From an uncultured virus (IMG/VR IMGVR_UViG_3300000929_000007) (lineage: Duplodnaviria > Heunggongvirae > Uroviricota > Caudoviricetes): a stretch of 64,000 nt of DNA. The stretch lies in the IMG/VR virus record IMGVR_UViG_3300000929_000007. One strand, 5' to 3'. Under the pieces are notes generated by a model, which did not search any database, was not told the DNA's origin, and worked only from the letters and a program-made list of their open reading frames with translations. Below, piece after piece: positions 2,689 to 24,700 of the stretch. A program made the translations under genes and the position numbers. Every line of letters starts with the position of its first letter. Position 1 is the stretch's first letter.

Positions 2689-3631
2689 AGTTGAATTAAA
2701 ACCAGTCAATCTACATTTGGATTCTGTCACAGTCGAAGATATCGAGAATCATAAGAATATCGATGTGGCAGGACTCAGAAAGGATTTGTTTAATCTCAAC
2801 AAATTCGACGCCGTAGCGAATTCTAATAACTTCTCGGGCAATCCATTCCTATATCACTTCCAATTAAAAAACCTATTAAAGTGTAAACGTCAAGATGGTA
2901 AAACTATCTATGATATCCACAGCGACAAAGAGCAATGGGACAAACTGATTGACTCTACCAAGAAACGAAACCGTGGAGGTAGGACACCTGCCGGTAATGT
3001 CTTCGAATGTTTTAGAATCAACTTGGGTTCGATTGTCATGTTTAAGGCAACAACCGCCAAGTATCTTTATCGAAAGTATAACGCAAAGAGTGTACTAGAC
3101 CCTACAGCGGGATGGGGTGGTCGAATGTTAGGTGCGTGGAGTTTAGGGATTGATTACACGGGTATCGATACTAACGTGGAAATGGTTGATGCCTATGATG
3201 ACATGATGACATTCTTAAACGAAGAGTCCGGACTTGAAAACACTCTGTTCCCTGACGAAGACAAATCTAAACTTGATATGATTTGGGAGAGTGCTCTTGA
3301 TGTAGATTTCAGTAAACTGGACTATGACTTTGTACTTACTTCCCCTCCTTATGTTAACTTAGAAATATATGAACATATGACACCTTGGGAATCTGATGAG
3401 AAGTTCTACACCGAATTCTTTATACCTCTCTGGCAGAAATGCGTCGATAACATAAAGACGGGTGGTCACGTCTGTTTTAACATATCACCTAAAATGTATG
3501 AGGATGCGGTATCATTTGGGTTACCGGTATGTCATGATGAGGAAGACCTCAAACAACAGATGGGTCAGAAAGTTGACTCGTTGAAGAAAGGTAAGAAGAA
3601 ACAGGATAAGATTTATATCTGGAATTGTTGA
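2681..3631 (+). CDS. amino-DNA methyltransferase (N4-C or N6-A)
   Basis: SAM-binding motif I VLDPTAGWGGR and catalytic motif IV TSPPY; ATG at 2681 preferred to the track's 2519 start. Confidence 0.85.
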   Translation: MSKVELKPVNLHLDSVTVEDIENHKNIDVAGLRKDLFNLNKFDAVANSNNFSGNPFLYHFQLKNLLKCKRQDGKTIYDIHSDKEQWDKLIDSTKKRNRGGRTPAGNVFECFRINLGSIVMFKATTAKYLYRKYNAKSVLDPTAGWGGRMLGAWSLGIDYTGIDTNVEMVDAYDDMMTFLNEESGLENTLFPDEDKSKLDMIWESALDVDFSKLDYDFVLTSPPYVNLEIYEHMTPWESDEKFYTEFFIPLWQKCVDNIKTGGHVCFNISPKMYEDAVSFGLPVCHDEEDLKQQMGQKVDSLKKGKKKQDKIYIWNC

Positions 3632-3650
3632 TTTATTTAGCTTCAGGCCC

Positions 3651-3712
3651 TTGACATTTGTTTCTAAAAGAAGTATAATAGCTGTACAAATTGAGTTGAG
3701 AGAGAATATATT
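3651..3712 (+). promoter_or_regulatory. early sigma70-type promoter/leader cassette, copy 3
   Basis: TTGACA(3651)-N17-TATAAT(3674)...TTGAGAGAGAATATATTATG. Confidence 0.85.
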
Positions 3713-3895
3713 ATGCAAGTTCGCCTTATTGAAGATATCAAAGAAGTCAAGTTGTTTAAAGCGGGTTGGGATCTCGTTGAGTATGAAGCAGGTACCGATC
3801 CTTTAGACGGATACACTGTGTTGGGTTTTGATGAGATAGGACAATTTTGTCAGAAACCTCAGTATGCGTGGGTAAGGTGGGGAGGTTACAAATGA
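3713..3895 (+). CDS. hypothetical early protein
   Basis: ORF directly after cassette. Confidence 0.65.
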   Translation: MQVRLIEDIKEVKLFKAGWDLVEYEAGTDPLDGYTVLGFDEIGQFCQKPQYAWVRWGGYK

Positions 3896-4032
3896 TTGAT
3901 AGTGAAATTGGTGATTTGATGAACGACCTTGTAATGTTGATTGATGCTGCGGAGTGTTATAACGAAACGTACTACAAAAGTGAGTACCGACGCATCACCA
4001 ACCGATTAGCTGAGATAGGAGATTTAATATAA
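3892..4032 (+). CDS. small hypothetical protein
   Basis: GGAGG SD, ATGA overlap with upstream stop. Confidence 0.55.
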   Translation: MIDSEIGDLMNDLVMLIDAAECYNETYYKSEYRRITNRLAEIGDLI

Positions 4033-4316
4033 TGTTGAGATTTGAGAATGTAGCGAATGTTGGTGATATGATTAAAGCGCTTGACTTCCGACCAATGGAC
4101 GGCCGTCCCGACAGTTATCTGGTAGGTCGTGTTATTGAGAAGGGTGAGATGTTCTACGACAATGGTGTTCCTATGTGTCATGGTTACAAGGTATATGTGA
4201 CTGACTCTCGCAGCGGTTCTGACCGGTTCGATATTAACCGAGTTGGTATTGAAATGATCGTTCCCTTTGAGATGAGTATAACCGAGTTTGATGGTCGGGT
4301 TCAGTTGGTGGCATAA
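4032..4316 (+). CDS. hypothetical protein (possible SH3-like beta barrel)
   Basis: TAATG coupling; VGDMIK...YLVGRVIE pattern. Confidence 0.65.
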   Translation: MLRFENVANVGDMIKALDFRPMDGRPDSYLVGRVIEKGEMFYDNGVPMCHGYKVYVTDSRSGSDRFDINRVGIEMIVPFEMSITEFDGRVQLVA

Positions 4317-4771
4317 TGGAAAAGATTGTTAAGTTGAATTACGACCGTAAGGTTAGGTACCTCTACGACAAGGATACCTTGGAGTGTGAGCGATTATCTG
4401 ATATTGTGATGGATCATTACGGTGAGTTCTTGGAACCCGCTCACGGGTGGGACATGGACTCCCACAGACGTTTTATAAAGGAGTTGAGAACGTGCGGGTT
4501 ATCAGTCAATGAGTTTCTGTCTAAAAAGTTTCCTCAACCAAAGAAAACTGTGACAAAACCCAAAAGGAAGGTGCGGAAAACTGTTAAGGCTCCCGTAGAG
4601 ACACCTGAGAAGAAACCTACTGTTAAGAAACCNNNNNNNNNNNNNNNNNNNNNNNNNNNNNNNNNNNNNNNNNNNNNNNNNCCTACTGTTAAGAAACCTA
4701 CTGTCAAACGAAAGACCTTTAACGCAAAGGCCCCCGTTAAGAAGAAGTCTCCTGCCACTAAAAAGAAATAA
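4316..4771 (+). CDS. hypothetical protein with Lys/Pro/Thr-rich repetitive C-terminal tail
   Basis: TAATG coupling; KKPTV repeats; N-gap 4633-4681 inside the repeat. Confidence 0.65.
   Translation: MEKIVKLNYDRKVRYLYDKDTLECERLSDIVMDHYGEFLEPAHGWDMDSHRRFIKELRTCGLSVNEFLSKKFPQPKKTVTKPKRKVRKTVKAPVETPEKKPTVKKXXXXXXXXXXXXXXXXXPTVKKPTVKRKTFNAKAPVKKKSPATKKK
4609..4708 (+). repeat. 15-nt coding tandem repeat (AAGAAACCTACTGTT = KKPTV), copy number unresolved
   Basis: Units visible on both sides of the N-gap. Confidence 0.7.
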
Positions 4772-4810
4772 GAAGTTAGGTTGATATAACAAATTGTTCT
4801 AAGAAAGCCC

Positions 4811-4845
4811 TTGTTTTTGTAGCTGAATCGTGTATAATAGCTACT
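4811..4845 (+). promoter_or_regulatory. early sigma70-type promoter upstream of structured RNA
   Basis: CCC-TTGTTT(4811)-N16-TATAAT(4833)-AGCTAC, same context as other cassettes but no GAGAGAG leader. Confidence 0.7.
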
Positions 4846-4852
4846 GTTGATG

Positions 4853-4954
4853 GGGAGGTCTGGTCTCCTGATTAAGAACCTTCGGGGTTCACTGCTTGTC
4901 TCCGAGACATCTGGAATCAGGAATAGGAACTTCGGTTCACTGCTCCTCCCACCA
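4853..4954 (+). ncRNA. putative structured non-coding RNA with closing stem and 3'-ACCA
   Basis: GGGAGG(4853-58)/CCTCCC(4945-50)+ACCA; TCCTGATT(4866-73)/AATCAGGA(4915-22); two GAAC-TTCG-GTTC-type hairpins each followed by ACTGCT; own promoter. Confidence 0.65.
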
Positions 4955-4974
4955 TTTATTATTTTTGAGGTTTT

Positions 4975-5280
4975 ATGATGACTAGTTTAAAAGGTTACAT
5001 TGACGCCACTTACTACGAGTTAGTCGAGGTTCTTGGAGAACCTACCTATCTTCGTGATGCGCTTGATGTAGAAGATAAGATTTGTACCGAATGGGAGTTC
5101 GTTGGATATAACTTCTACGGAGAAGAAACTCCGATCACTGTGTATGACTGGAAAGATTATGACGGTGGGGTTAAAAGTAGAGGCGGAGAACTCTATAAGT
5201 GGCACATCGGGGGAACTGAGTTATGTGTTCTTGATATCGTTGAAGCAAAAATAAGACACCTGCGTGAGAAAAATATTTAA
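4975..5280 (+). CDS. hypothetical phage protein
   Basis: GAGG SD; TSLKGYI..YxELVxxLGEP..EW..TVYDWK..WHIGG pattern. Confidence 0.7.
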   Translation: MMTSLKGYIDATYYELVEVLGEPTYLRDALDVEDKICTEWEFVGYNFYGEETPITVYDWKDYDGGVKSRGGELYKWHIGGTELCVLDIVEAKIRHLREKNI

Positions 5281-5299
5281 ATTATTTTGGCTAGGGCCC

Positions 5300-5357
5300 T
5301 TGACATTGTTCCCAGTTATGTTATAATAGCTACCTAATTGATTGAGAGAGATGTATT
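5300..5357 (+). promoter_or_regulatory. early sigma70-type promoter/leader cassette, copy 4
   Basis: TTGACA(5300)-N16-TATAAT(5322); CCAGTTATGTTATAATAGCTACCTAATTGATTGAGAGAGA identical to copy 1. Confidence 0.85.
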
Positions 5358-5915
5358 ATGAAAAATGAAATGATTGAGTTGTTCGCGAAACACGACCTTA
5401 TTCTTACTATTGATGAAGAACGTATGATCGCCAAGTGCGACCGTCTTGCTCCTCGTGCCCGTCTTGGTTACAAGACTGAGTACCACGTTCGTTACCGTAG
5501 TGTTGAACGCATGTATGAAGCGCAACAAGAGTTCATTGATAATCGTCTCGCTGTTACCGAGTATCGCGCAAAACGTAAAGAAGCGCAGAAAGTCAAGGCA
5601 GCAGAACTTGCCGCCGGCGTTAAGGTCGGTGACCTGTTCGTTGACTCTTGGGGTTACGAACAGACTCAAGTCGATCTCTACCAAGTTGTTGCGAAACCTA
5701 CTGCTCGGACTGTGATCGTTCGTGAGATTGCGTCTCAGACTGTCAAAGGTTCAGAAGGTTATGACTGTCAGAATGTTCGTGCGGTTCCCAACTCTTTCAT
5801 TGGCGAAGAGATGAAGAAACGTCTGGACAACTACGGTGGTTTCAAGACTTCTTCTTACTCTTGCGCCCGTCCTACTACTGCGGAAGCAGAACACTACAAC
5901 AGCTGGTACTACTAA
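5358..5915 (+). CDS. hypothetical early protein
   Basis: 185-aa ORF after cassette; VKVGDLFVDSWGYEQTQVDLYQVV motif. Confidence 0.75.
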   Translation: MKNEMIELFAKHDLILTIDEERMIAKCDRLAPRARLGYKTEYHVRYRSVERMYEAQQEFIDNRLAVTEYRAKRKEAQKVKAAELAAGVKVGDLFVDSWGYEQTQVDLYQVVAKPTARTVIVREIASQTVKGSEGYDCQNVRAVPNSFIGEEMKKRLDNYGGFKTSSYSCARPTTAEAEHYNSWYY

Positions 5916-6079
5916 TGACTTTCAGAGAATTTTGTTTTAAACAGTGGACACTTCATTGTGAAGAGTGTGAAGGGTATGACGGAAAATACCCTGACTACGA
6001 TTCGAAAGAGTACTTCCGGCGAATGAAATGGTTTCTAAGATGGCAATTTAGGAAGTTAAAAGAATCTAAAGCTAAATAA
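5915..6079 (+). CDS. small hypothetical protein
   Basis: TAATG coupling; MTFREFC..W..HCEEC. Confidence 0.55.
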   Translation: MTFREFCFKQWTLHCEECEGYDGKYPDYDSKEYFRRMKWFLRWQFRKLKESKAK

Positions 6080-6083
6080 GCCC

Positions 6084-6143
6084 TTGACATTTGTTTCTGA
6101 AAGAAGTATAATAGCCACCTAATTGATTGAGAGAGAATATATT
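6084..6143 (+). promoter_or_regulatory. early sigma70-type promoter/leader cassette, copy 5
   Basis: TTGACA(6084)-N17-TATAAT(6107); near-identical to copy 3. Confidence 0.85.
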
Positions 6144-6395
6144 ATGTTTAAATTTGTTGCTAAACCAAAACTGACTAACCGTTATGATGAAAAGACTTTT
6201 GAGAATAAGGATGCCAAAGTTGCTGCCGCAGAAGCTCTTCAGTACCTTAACGAATACAACGAGATGGGTAAAGAGTTTGCTGACCAATACGGACAATATG
6301 TCCCCGCGTTAAAGGCAGAAGACTGGGCAATGCTTGGTAAGTTAACTCCACCTACCGGTTTGTATTTCCGCGACAACACATTGATGGGACTCTAA
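6144..6395 (+). CDS. hypothetical early protein
   Basis: ORF after cassette, ATTATG start. Confidence 0.65.
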   Translation: MFKFVAKPKLTNRYDEKTFENKDAKVAAAEALQYLNEYNEMGKEFADQYGQYVPALKAEDWAMLGKLTPPTGLYFRDNTLMGL

Positions 6396-6396
6396 G

Positions 6397-6663
6397 ATGT
6401 TGAGACACAATGATAGTTGTACTGAACTCTTAACGATTCTTCAGGAAGAGTGTGCTGAAGTTATTCAGATGGCATCTAAACTAAAACGATTTGGTCAAGA
6501 CCATGACACTCTTGAGCGGTTCGCCAAAGAACTCGGTGACCTTCAGTGTATGATCGACCTTTGCCAAGAATACGACCTCGTGTCTTATACCGACCTAGAT
6601 TTGTATTCAGCAGAGAAACGAATAAAACTAAAGAGTTGGTCGGATCTCGTAAATGAAGATTGA
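6397..6663 (+). CDS. MazG-like nucleotide pyrophosphohydrolase domain protein
   Basis: LQEECAEVIQ...KELGDL acidic EExxE/ExxD helices. Confidence 0.65.
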   Translation: MLRHNDSCTELLTILQEECAEVIQMASKLKRFGQDHDTLERFAKELGDLQCMIDLCQEYDLVSYTDLDLYSAEKRIKLKSWSDLVNED

Positions 6664-21763: not shown

Positions 21764-24700
21764 ATGACTCGGCAAATTATTAATACAGGCACCTCGGTTA
21801 ATGACGGGAAAGGTGATACTCTAAGAGACGCCTCTGCTAAAATCAATGCGAACTTTCAAGAGATGTTCTCGCTTGTTGATATGAGCGCAGCGGGTACTAT
21901 TACCCCAGAATTTATTTCTAATTACATTGATAGTTCAGTTGGCACTTACCTAAATGGATTGAATGTTCAAACTGTTCTTGACAACCAGAACAATATTAGT
22001 TTTCTGGATTCACGCGTCACGCAACATGATACTATTCTCACGACATTAAACTCAAATACCATCAATTTACAGTATGAGATTGATTTAATTAACTACACTA
22101 TCGAGAACACTCAGATTGGTGATACGGGGCCACAGGGCCCTCAAGGTGGTCAGGGGGAAATTGGTTCTCAGGGTGCTCAAGGAATCATCGGGCCGCAGGG
22201 CCCTATTGGTGTCCAAGGTGTCCAAGGGGCAATTGGTACCCAAGGTTCTCAGGGTAATGTCGGAGAGATTGGGCCTCAGGGTGTTCGTGGTATCACTGGT
22301 GTCCAAGGTATCCAAGGTAATGTCGGTGAACGCGGTAACCAAGGAGAACAAGGCCCTCAAGGTGACCAAGGTATCCAAGGTAACGTCGGAGAAATTGGAG
22401 CACAGGGTGAACAAGGTGCTCAGGGTGCTCAGGGACTTCAGGGTAATGTTGGAGAGATTGGAGCACAGGGTGCTCAGGGTGCTCAAGGTTCTCAAGGACT
22501 ACAAGGTAATGTAGGCCCTATCGGTGTCCAAGGTGTCCAAGGGGCAATTGGTGCTACAGGTCTTCAGGGTAACGTTGGAGAGATTGGTGCTCAAGGCGCT
22601 CAAGGTAGTACTGGAGTTCAGGGCATCCAAGGTAATGTTGGTGAAATTGGAGCACAAGGTGCGCAGGGTAATCAAGGTGACCAAGGTATTCAAGGTAATG
22701 TTGGTGAAGTCGGAGCACAGGGCGCAGTTGGTGCGCAGGGTTCTCAAGGACTACAAGGTAACGTAGGCCCTATTGGTGTCCAAGGTATTCAGGGTTCAGT
22801 TGGTGAACAAGGACTTCAAGGTAATGTCGGAGAAATAGGCCCACAAGGAATTCAAGGTGTTCAGGGTTCTGTCGGTATCCAAGGTAATGTTGGTGAAGCT
22901 GGAGCACAGGGTGCTGCTGGTGCTCAAGGTTCTATCGGTATTCAGGGTAACGTTGGTGAAGTTGGAGCACAGGGTGCTGTAGGTGTTCAGGGTTCTGCTG
23001 GTATTCAAGGTAACGTTGGTGAGCAAGGCGCGCAGGGTGCTATTGGTGCCCAAGGTTCTGTCGGTATCCAAGGTAATGTTGGTGACAAAGGTGCTCAAGG
23101 CGCTGTAGGTTCTCAGGGTTCTGCTGGTATCCAAGGTAACGTTGGTGAGCAAGGTGCTCAAGGTGCTATTGGTGCTCAAGGTTCTGTCGGTATTCAAGGT
23201 AATGTCGGAGACGTTGGTGTTCAAGGTGCTGCTGGTGCTCAAGGTTCTATCGGTATTCAAGGTAATGTCGGAGACGTTGGTGCTCAAGGTTCTAAGGGCC
23301 CACAAGGAGATCAAGGTCTTCAGGGTGCCGTTGGTGACGTTGGTGCTCAAGGTGAGGTTGGTTCCCAAGGTAGCGCAGGCCCTCAAGGAGCGGAAGGCCC
23401 GATTGGTACTCAAGGTGACGCAGGGCCACAGGGCCCCGCAGGTACAACTCCTGGCCCACAAGGCCCGATAGGAAATACCGGTGAACCCGGCCCACAAGGG
23501 CCCGCAGGTACAACTCCTGGCCCACAAGGGCCAACGGGTACTACTGGTGAAGCAGGGCCGCAAGGTGCTGTTGGTGCTCAGGGTGCTGTTGGTGCTCAGG
23601 GTTCTCAAGGTGATATTGGCCCTCAAGGCGATACCGGTGCTCAAGGTAGTGTCGGATCACAGGGTGCGGTTGGTTCTCAAGGTGCTCGAGGTTTTACTGG
23701 TGCACAGGGTAATGCGGGTTCTCAAGGTTCTCAGGGTGAACAAGGTGCTCAGGGTATTATTGGTGCTCAAGGTAACGCAGGAGCACAGGGTACTACTGGT
23801 GCTACAGGTTCTCAGGGTATTGTTGGAGCACAAGGTAATGCGGGTGCGCAGGGTGCTATTGGTGCCCAAGGTATCCAAGGTATTGTTGGNNNNNNNNNNN
23901 NNNNNNNNNNNNNNNNNNNNNNNNNNNNNNNNNNNNNNNNNNNNNNNNNNNNNNNNNNNNNNNNNNNNNNNNNNNNNNNNNNNNNNNNNNNNNNNNNNNN
24001 NNNNNNNNNNNNNNNNNNNAAGGTGCTCAAGGCGAACAAGGTGCGCAAGGAATAAAAGGTGCCCAAGGTAATGCTGGCGCACAAGGTGCTCAGGGTATTA
24101 TTGGTGCTCAAGGTAACGCAGGAGCACAAGGTAATGCTGGCGCACAAGGNNNNNNNNNNNNNNNNNNNNNNNNNNNNNNNNNNNNNNNNNNNNNNNNNNN
24201 NNNNNNNNNNNNNNNNNNNNNNNNNNNNNNNNNNNNNNNNNNNNNNNNNNNNNNNNNNNNNNNNNNCCTCAAGGTTCTCAGGGTATTGTAGGTGCTCAAG
24301 GTAATGCGGGTTCTCAAGGTTCTCAGGGTGAGACTGGCGCACAAGGTAATGTTGGTGCTCAAGGTAATGCTGGCGCACAGGGATCACAGGGTGAGACTGG
24401 CGCACAAGGTAATGTTGGTGCTCAAGGTAATGCTGGTGCGCAGGGCGGACAAGGCCCTCAAGGTGGACAAGGAATAAAAGGCGCGCAAGGTAACGCAGGA
24501 GCACAAGGTTCTCAGGGTGAGACTGGTGCCCAAGGTTTCACAGGTGCTCAAGGTAATGCCGGTGCGCAGGGATCACAGGGTGCTGCTGGTGCTCAAGGTT
24601 TCACAGGTGCTCAAGGTAACGCAGGCCCTCAAGGTGCTCAAGGTCAGGTAGGTGCTCAAGGTTTCACAGGTGCTCAAGGTAATGCTGGNNNNNNNNNNNN

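Follow-up and report, generated by a model that had tools for sequence, protein, structure and literature searches.

The locus described here raises the question of whether a short stretch in the early region of a phage genome encodes an RNA that is conserved for its structure and, if so, what such an RNA may do. It lies at positions 4853–4950 on the + strand of a 64,000-nucleotide (nt) DNA of an uncultured virus (IMG/VR record IMGVR_UViG_3300000929_000007); this whole stretch is called the window below. An earlier reading made without database searches (the sequence-only reading) had drawn a closing stem, an inner helix and three hairpins at this place. Our analysis leaves us nearly certain that 4853–4950 (+) is a genuine conserved structured RNA. 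The window itself belongs to a T4-type myovirus, with PHROG matches to a gp32-type single-strand DNA-binding protein, baseplate wedge, tail-tube cap, tail fibres and large terminase, and with one open reading frame (ORF) matching a late-transcription coactivator in Pfam. The closest deposited phage is C48C1 (Kyanoviridae), whose gp32 shows 83.2% amino-acid identity to that of the window. The RNA locus is situated upstream of gp32 in a region of early type with short + strand ORFs.

On the window sequence alone, the structure was no better than chance. The minimum free energy (MFE) of the + strand was −35.8 kcal/mol (z = −1.00), and 30 of 200 shuffled sequences folded equally well; the fold of the element on the − strand gave z = −0.82. 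The MFE fold of the window contained just 18 of the 28 consensus pairs, and GTTCACTGCT with at most one mismatch occurred 5 times in the window versus 4.09 expected. The structure stands out from chance because 23 distinct homologues keep the helices by means of compensatory changes. To obtain these homologues, public contigs were scanned for the duplicated hairpin motif of the element and then for other conserved blocks, which yielded diverged copies. A covariance model (R1) built from four of these copies was then used to score the fetched loci. In 61 sources it detected 32 full-length copies, one truncated copy and two partial second copies; 34 further sources added 27 full-length matches and one truncated match. 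Once identical sequences had been collapsed, 22 variants were retained by pattern, and the clean alignment to the model (A3) comprised 23. Eleven IMG/VR contigs held a 100% identical copy and were uninformative for covariation. A pattern scan in which P1 (the closing stem) and the 5′ part were left out gave 10 matches, all 10 in contigs already found, and revealed no hidden divergent branch. The pattern TTCACTGCT-N35-65-TTCACTGCT was discarded as too loose, as it hit at least 117 stretches, mostly coding repeats.

The alignment was fitted to the model, its sequences are related to each other, and all variants were found with sequence patterns derived from the family. Within it, 98.3% of the 656 pair cells formed standard pairs, and 13 of the 29 pairs had changed on both sides (54 cells). 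Compensatory change among homologues was the check that the sequence-only reading had proposed, and the contrast with the controls was clear: when the 3′ partners were slid by 1–3 columns, 38–67% of the cells were paired and at most two pairs showed changes on both sides. On four of five measures, none of 500 shuffles did as well as the real alignment. One compensatory pair was found in P1 (A-U in 21 variants, G-C in 2), four among the eight pairs of the inner helix P2, two in hairpin A, four among the five pairs of hairpin B and two in hairpin C; a stem exchange in hairpin A was A-U in 15 variants and G-C in 8. Compensatory exchanges were numerous and present across all helices despite the relatedness of the sequences and the fitting to the model. 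RNAalifold, to which the helices were not supplied, returned the same five helices. The alignment contained 15 G-U or U-G cells, which identify the + strand as the folding strand. A search of the columns for tertiary or pseudoknot pairs detected Watson–Crick exchange solely at pairs already in the model. Family members were 94–114 nt long. The RNA was 67–82% identical between phages whose neighbouring proteins were 35–56% identical, and in one close relative the RNA was 95% and the proteins 79–88% identical.

The helices lie where the sequence-only reading had placed them, and the structure that it drew matches the covarying ones. P1 is formed by GGGAGG (4853–4858) and CCTCCC (4945–4950), both on the + strand as are all parts given here, and is 99.4% paired in the family. 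It closes the outer three-way junction, in which P2 and hairpin C are the other two helices. After its 5′ strand comes the outer junction strand UCUGG, followed by UC (4859–4865); UCUGG was found in 23 of 23 variants. The shared central helix P2 pairs TCCTGATT (4866–4873) with AATCAGGA (4915–4922), an inverted repeat (I3), and closes the inner three-way junction, where it meets hairpins A and B. The inner module (4874–4894) consists of a UAA(G) junction, hairpin A (GAACC-UUCGG-GGUUC, 4876–4890) and ACUG (4891–4894). It is followed by hairpin B (UGUCU-CCG-AGACA, 4897–4909), a variable stem-loop with a loop of 3 to about 20 nt among the variants, and by the inner junction strand UCUGG (4910–4914), of which CUGG is present in all 23. 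The outer module (4923–4944) consists of an AUAG junction, hairpin C (GAAC-UUCG-GUUC, 4927–4938), ACUG (4939–4942) and CU. The stem pairs of hairpins A and C covary. P1 is followed directly by ACCA (4951–4954), which is not conserved in the family, and then by a U-rich spacer with the Shine-Dalgarno sequence GAGG (4967–4970) and the ATG at 4975 of the next gene (4955–4977).

The unpaired junction letters are the most conserved part of the RNA among the 23 variants. UAG or UAA precedes hairpin A; in every variant AAUAG precedes hairpin C, the longer stretch around it being GAAUAGG in 22 variants and AAAUAGG in one. A duplicated motif had been noticed from the sequence, and GGTTCACTGCT indeed occurs in exactly two copies in the window, 48 nt apart (direct repeat D1); its hairpin-ACUG unit is the core of the design, with ACUG in 23 of 23 variants after both hairpins. 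The hairpin loops vary freely (UUCG, CUCGG, UACU, UUU, ACUAA, UCA) and are therefore not the conserved contact surface. Both junctions can be read in one common order, which is a helix (P1 or hairpin B), (U)CUGG-N, P2, (AA)UAG, a hairpin of GAAC/GUUC type, ACUG-YU(U) and the first helix again. Since the same strands follow in the same order in both, the RNA consists of two copies of one module. We describe it as a pseudo-dyad, in which two three-way-junction modules are nested and share P2 in opposite directions. In one variant, represented by two contigs (L296 and L320), an extra half-copy with a single junction directly follows the full element (E = 2e-8). By model match and fold this half-copy (L296:1354–1413, − strand, and the same place in L320) contains P1′, UCAGG, a closed P2′ hairpin, UAG, a GAACC/GGUUC hairpin and ACUG. 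Its presence suggests that the three-way-junction module may be the functional unit.

The sigma70 promoter that had been claimed directly before the RNA is present in the window, and an equivalent exists in 22 of 22 variants. It is of sigma70 type (4811–4838, +), with the −35 element TTGTTT at 4811–4816, a 16-nt spacer and the −10 element TATAAT at 4833–4838, and matches the consensus at 9 of 12 positions. The promoter was absent from the list of a consensus scan, its −35 hexamer matching at just 3 of 6 positions. Three perfect 12/12 sigma70 promoters (TTGACA-N16/17-TATAAT) lie within 2.5 kb of the early region, at 3651–3679, 5300–5327 and 6084–6112 (+). Among the variants the promoter scored 8–12 of 12, with an A-rich tract upstream, and the promoter of the RNA is weaker in the window phage (9/12) than in relatives (up to 12/12). 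The −10 element ended 13–14 nt upstream of P1 in all 22 variants, so the RNA would be transcribed first. The initially transcribed leader lies within 4839–4852 (+). From the promoter geometry, transcription is expected to start near 4843–4846, so that about 6–9 nt (…GUUGAUG) would remain unpaired ahead of P1; part of the leader is conserved, with GUU immediately 5′ of P1 in 16 of 23 variants. By the same geometry an early transcript driven by a host promoter of sigma70 type is predicted to carry the RNA as its first folded domain.

So far, members of the family have come solely from uncultured estuarine and marine phage contigs. There was no copy in 50,697 GenBank phage records. One copy is present per genome: the 160-kb genome G005, which is 93% complete, has one, and the window gave one match with the search filters off, the next best having E = 1.4. 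In C48C1 the RNA was not found by BLAST, by both models or by inspection; at the syntenic site the same upstream sequence, promoter and leader are joined directly to the Shine-Dalgarno sequence of a 182-amino-acid gene. By this comparison the RNA is accessory, and dispensable in the close relative C48C1. A scan of bacterial genomes gave one chance match and one contig of a metagenome-assembled genome (MAG; L363, 35.8 kb, labelled Porticoccaceae). This contig and a phage-like metagenome contig (L359) share the same RNA sequence, and the MAG holds a single copy. In 150 other genomes of the order of the MAG no significant match was obtained, the best weak one having E = 0.056. The contig is probably phage DNA in the bin, and the label of the MAG is no evidence of the host.

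The gene 3′ of the RNA was of seven different kinds in the 22 variants. It encodes a protein of a 78–101-amino-acid family in nine variants including the window, one of a family of about 175 amino acids in five, and one of the 182-amino-acid family, normally second in order, in two. In three variants the next feature is a second RNA hairpin followed by a 59-amino-acid ORF, and in single variants it is a gene for a SprT-like protein (weak match), a 58-amino-acid ORF or a weakly matching HNH endonuclease. Synteny extends to the wider neighbourhood of the variants, and from this together with the differing next genes it follows that insertions fall after the RNA and not between the promoter and the RNA. 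The HNH ORF (L281:982–1398, −; PF13392 E = 4.6e-4, below the curated cut-off; PADLOC HNH matches down to 4e-5) sits between the RNA and the usual downstream gene, and it looks like a homing-endonuclease insertion. The next gene of the window (4975–5280, +) encodes a 101-amino-acid protein with 59 metagenomic homologues, all unnamed. Its structure model (predicted local distance difference test score, pLDDT, 91.0) has a predicted alpha/beta fold, for which Foldseek gave no PDB match at E ≤ 0.001. A synteny search by way of this protein recovered 11 identical loci, and four divergent relatives without the RNA upstream.

Other features of the surroundings were noted as well. Upstream of the RNA, the ORF at 4316–4771 (+) encodes 151 amino acids, is rich in lysine with KKPTVKKP-like repeats, and is broken by 49 N, a masked or undetermined stretch, at 4633–4681; it had no match in Pfam, PHROG or PADLOC, and its homologues (cluster c0) are also found upstream of the RNA in most variants. 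A second RNA-like element has a GC-rich stem that covaries (GGGGAGUCGGUC/GAUCGCUCCCC versus GUGGGGUGCGCGG/CCGCAAGUCCCCAC), followed by a U-tract. Its nearly invariant loop of about 27 nt reads UUUCGAARAUUCCGACUGAYAGGUAWGUG, and the whole resembles a terminator hairpin with a conserved loop. This element was seen at L329:1600–1700 (+), in L348, L337, L359 and L363, at the C48C1 locus (L016:4340–4440) and at the starts of L303 and L312, and in three variants it lies between the main RNA and the 59-amino-acid ORF. It had no Rfam match in the loci scanned and is absent from the window. Far from the RNA, the window contains a 763-amino-acid ORF (21764–24055, +) with many collagen-like tail-fibre PHROG matches, where the local GC content peaks at 0.50 versus about 0.40 elsewhere.

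On the 3′ side of the RNA, the 14 nt after P1 contained 7–14 pyrimidines in 22 of 22 variants and 10–14 in 19, and were mostly U-rich. Judged by eye, a U-tract directly after P1 was good in about 9 of the 22 and partial in about 8; in the window the U-tract UUUAUUAUUUUU begins 4 nt after P1. In most variants the pyrimidine-rich stretch is followed by a Shine-Dalgarno sequence and a start codon, and these lie 17–29 nt from the RNA in 17 of 22.

What, then, may the RNA do? We tentatively favour an accessory early RNA that acts in trans as a two-site binder or decoy, with a confidence that falls somewhat short of even. A two-site protein decoy would fit the architecture and is our leading guess. 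The two junctions would serve as equivalent sites for two copies, or for a dimer, of one partner, most likely a host or phage protein, and the RNA would itself be the product rather than a regulator dedicated to one downstream gene. It could be released by termination at the U-tract after P1 where this is present, or be cut from the 5′ end of the operon transcript within the AU-rich spacer. An independent binder is suggested because the number of modules varies (2, or 2.5 in L296 and L320), because the identity of the following gene is irrelevant (seven kinds), because the same operon runs without the RNA in C48C1, and because just one of many early promoters carries it. A variable number of modules is typical of multi-site binders. 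T4-type phages keep host-takeover and anti-defence functions in a variable early region, and an RNA located in such a region behind one of the strongest promoter types has the profile of an accessory weapon or regulator.

Several observations weigh against an independent two-site binder. By eye, about 5 of the 22 variants have no U-tract after P1, so that termination at this place is not conserved. Nine public runs labelled as RNA hold parts of the region, and four of them were compared with the window as assembled contigs with a depth of 2–4. Contigs from two of these RNA libraries extend uninterrupted from the element into the following gene (X2, 4819–5096, and X7, 4883–5096), and in two others (X1 and X6) the downstream genes are covered and the element is not; contigs of this kind cannot show expression, ends or strand. 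One of the bridging contigs (X2) begins upstream of the expected transcription start. The bridging contigs are a weak hint of co-transcription, and they fit a leader or contaminating DNA as well as a separate RNA. In addition, two alternative local hairpins of the 5′ part could be formed in 96.4% and 92.8% of the cells. They showed no compensatory changes, and 5 and 10 of their 138 cells are disrupted by substitutions; as they can be formed, a folding switch, and with it a role in cis, is conceivable. None of the neighbouring proteins had a Pfam, PADLOC or PDB-fold match hinting at RNA binding. Finally, the search patterns were derived from the family, and the true diversity may be under-sampled.

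A role in cis is the main rival, somewhat less likely than the two-site binder. The RNA would then be the 5′ leader of the early operon and would shield the transcript from decay that depends on its 5′ end, keep the pyrimidine-rich spacer and the Shine-Dalgarno sequence accessible to ribosomes and so enhance translation, or bind the RNA polymerase that transcribes it and render it resistant to terminators, in the manner of HK022 put. The constant distance of 13–14 nt to the −10 element and the short distance to the Shine-Dalgarno sequence and ATG are as expected of a leader, and so are the contigs bridging the element and the next gene. A put-like or stabilising role would be indifferent to which gene follows. 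Three variants have, between the element and the genes, a hairpin that resembles a terminator and carries a U-tract, an obstacle that an antiterminator would need to overcome; the alternative 5′ hairpins together with the lack of a conserved terminator can also be reconciled with a leader. However, each genome has many strong early promoters and the RNA follows just one of them, and in C48C1 the homologous promoter and operon do without it. Simple stabilisation would not need duplicated or triplicated modules with invariant junction letters. A scan of 3500–6500 in the window found no + strand terminator-like site downstream of the element, with a tool that cannot score a stem closing a 90-nt insert. 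The 6–9 unpaired 5′ nt expected from the promoter geometry also exceed what 5′ stabilisers tolerate; to our knowledge, those described tolerate fewer.

A bolder reading is that of a counter-defence factor consisting of RNA only. It would be produced within the first minutes of infection, and its two (at times two and a half) identical junction pockets would soak up a symmetric nucleotide of immune signalling or else a dimeric host protein that serves in defence or binds RNA. We consider this unlikely. Less likely still is a riboswitch-like sensor, in which two pseudo-symmetric pockets would bind two small ligands and P1 would control the Shine-Dalgarno sequence or termination. The pseudo-two-fold design with two junctions recalls the cyclic di-AMP (c-di-AMP; ydaO) riboswitch and the tandem glycine aptamers, and the junction nucleotides are invariant. 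The 3′ strand of P1 (UCUCCCC) is complementary to a Shine-Dalgarno sequence of GGAG type, and the alternative hairpins compete with P1 and P2. Yet the element is followed by seven unrelated genes, or another RNA, and no expression platform is conserved, there being no separate terminator stem and the Shine-Dalgarno sequence lying 17–29 nt off. The alternative pairings lack compensatory changes, and no Rfam riboswitch matched at E ≤ 10.

The U-tract allows P1 to be regarded as part of an elaborate intrinsic terminator or attenuator, which would stop most transcripts before the first gene. P1 is GC-rich and 6–7 base pairs (bp) long, and a U-tract follows it directly in the variants counted above and, 4 nt past it, in the window. 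Its absence from about 5 of the 22 variants speaks against this role, as do the RNA-library contigs that cross the site, and the conserved junction letters would not be explained by it. A helix closing a 90-nt multibranched insert makes a poor terminator. An attenuator is thus very improbable.

The sequence-only reading had also seen a tRNA-like ACCA end and suggested processing like that of a tRNA, and this did not hold. A stable tRNA-like RNA comparable to species 1 and 2 of T4, processed by RNase P and matured at CCA, is suggested in the window by ACCA following a 6-bp terminal helix. However, ACCA is found in one of the 23 variants (the window) and UCCA in the nearest one, while 21 lack CCA and have tail triplets such as CUC, UUU, UCU and similar. 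The structure has no T-loop, D-arm or anticodon-like 7-nt loop. The statement that it is not a canonical cloverleaf was borne out, as ARAGORN found no tRNA gene in the 64-kb window and none in 12 homologue loci. We regard a tRNA-like RNA as scarcely credible.

A mimic of the type I-F CRISPR repeat, that is an RNA anti-CRISPR, had been put forward as a speculation, and we give it practically no weight. GUUCACUGC occurs twice in the window, and the type I-F repeat begins with the same letters. Its GUUC, however, forms the 3′ side of the stems of hairpins A and C and changes together with its partner strand (GUUC, GUCC, GCCC, AUUC, AGUC), so that ACUG alone is fixed; the letters after ACUG vary (CUU, UUU, AUG, ACG), and the motif is not followed by a hairpin of repeat type. 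The chance that the element is not an RNA at all is likewise negligible: a 43-amino-acid ORF (TTG, 4847–4978) overlaps it, yet the lengths of 94–114 nt differ by non-multiples of 3 and stops occur in all three frames in 15 of the 22 variants including the window, the other 7 having one open frame that is not constant; and direct and inverted repeats could make it a DNA-level protein-binding site, yet the substitutions keep the pairing, and 15 of the paired cells are G-U, which on the opposite strand would read as C-A mismatches.

Two further identities were tried and rejected. A type III antitoxin RNA (ToxI, CptI or TenpI type) was set aside, as the units are nested and not simply tandem and the downstream proteins have no relevant Pfam match. 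In PADLOC the downstream proteins of all seven kinds gave no match save the HNH endonuclease of one variant, and no type III toxin or other defence protein adjoins the RNA. A reading of TGCTT as a T4 MotA box failed on inspection, the letters being variable (ACUGUUU, ACUGAUG).

The proposal of an undescribed phage small RNA withstood comparison with the families of Rfam 15 (4227 models). At gathering threshold the 64-kb window matched none of them, and 4700–5100 gave no match at E ≤ 10; in 12 homologue loci two chance matches to long non-coding RNAs were obtained (E 0.37–0.44), far below threshold. The absence from GenBank phages agrees with this. Topic searches found no such element in the portions of the literature that they reached, and a description in other papers or in supplements is possible. 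Searches with motif strings returned unrelated cloning primers solely, and in the literature on C48C1 nothing relevant was found. In our judgement this RNA family is of a new kind, and so is its design as a nested duplicate.

Far less is known of the structured RNAs of phages than of their proteins. The RNA described here carries the hallmarks of a selected RNA structure, namely five covarying helices, invariant junction letters and conservation above that of the neighbouring proteins. Its design is unusual in that one module is duplicated and nested by way of a shared helix, and no curated RNA family matches it. Should the favoured two-site binding of a host factor or signal be correct, it would represent a new kind of RNA-based interaction between phage and host, and as a counter-defence sponge it would do in RNA what the protein sponges of phages do against bacterial immunity. 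The RNA is a compact and well-defined target for structure determination and for the fishing of partners.

Several known systems share single properties with this RNA. The putL and putR sites of HK022 also encode structured RNAs located just past phage early promoters, acting independently of the gene that follows and optional among relatives. The put RNAs consist of two unlike stem-loops, whereas here two nearly identical three-way junctions are nested and present once per genome, and no sequence or Rfam relationship was found between them. Internal duplication, pseudo-two-fold symmetry and two three-helix junctions are shared with the ydaO-yuaA c-di-AMP riboswitch (RF00379) and the tandem glycine aptamers. 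Unlike those riboswitches, this RNA is restricted to phages, precedes unrelated genes, has no conserved expression platform and gives no Rfam match at E ≤ 10. T4 species 1 and 2 (rnaC and rnaD) are likewise non-coding RNAs of about 100–140 nt from a T4-type phage, but they sit in the tRNA cluster, share tRNA processing and have CCA ends, whereas here there is no tRNA cluster, CCA is not conserved and the RNA has its own promoter. With the CsrB and RsmZ sponges, pseudo-ToxI and the RNA anti-CRISPR decoys, it has in common a repeated unit, a variable number of units, a strong promoter and an accessory distribution. The known phage decoys differ in context, since here neither a toxin nor anything related to Cas is present, and 150 genomes from the order to which the MAG is assigned yielded no host counterpart. 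Their unit differs too: in the sponges and decoys it is a GGA hairpin loop, a CRISPR repeat or a ToxI repeat, and in this RNA it is a three-way junction.

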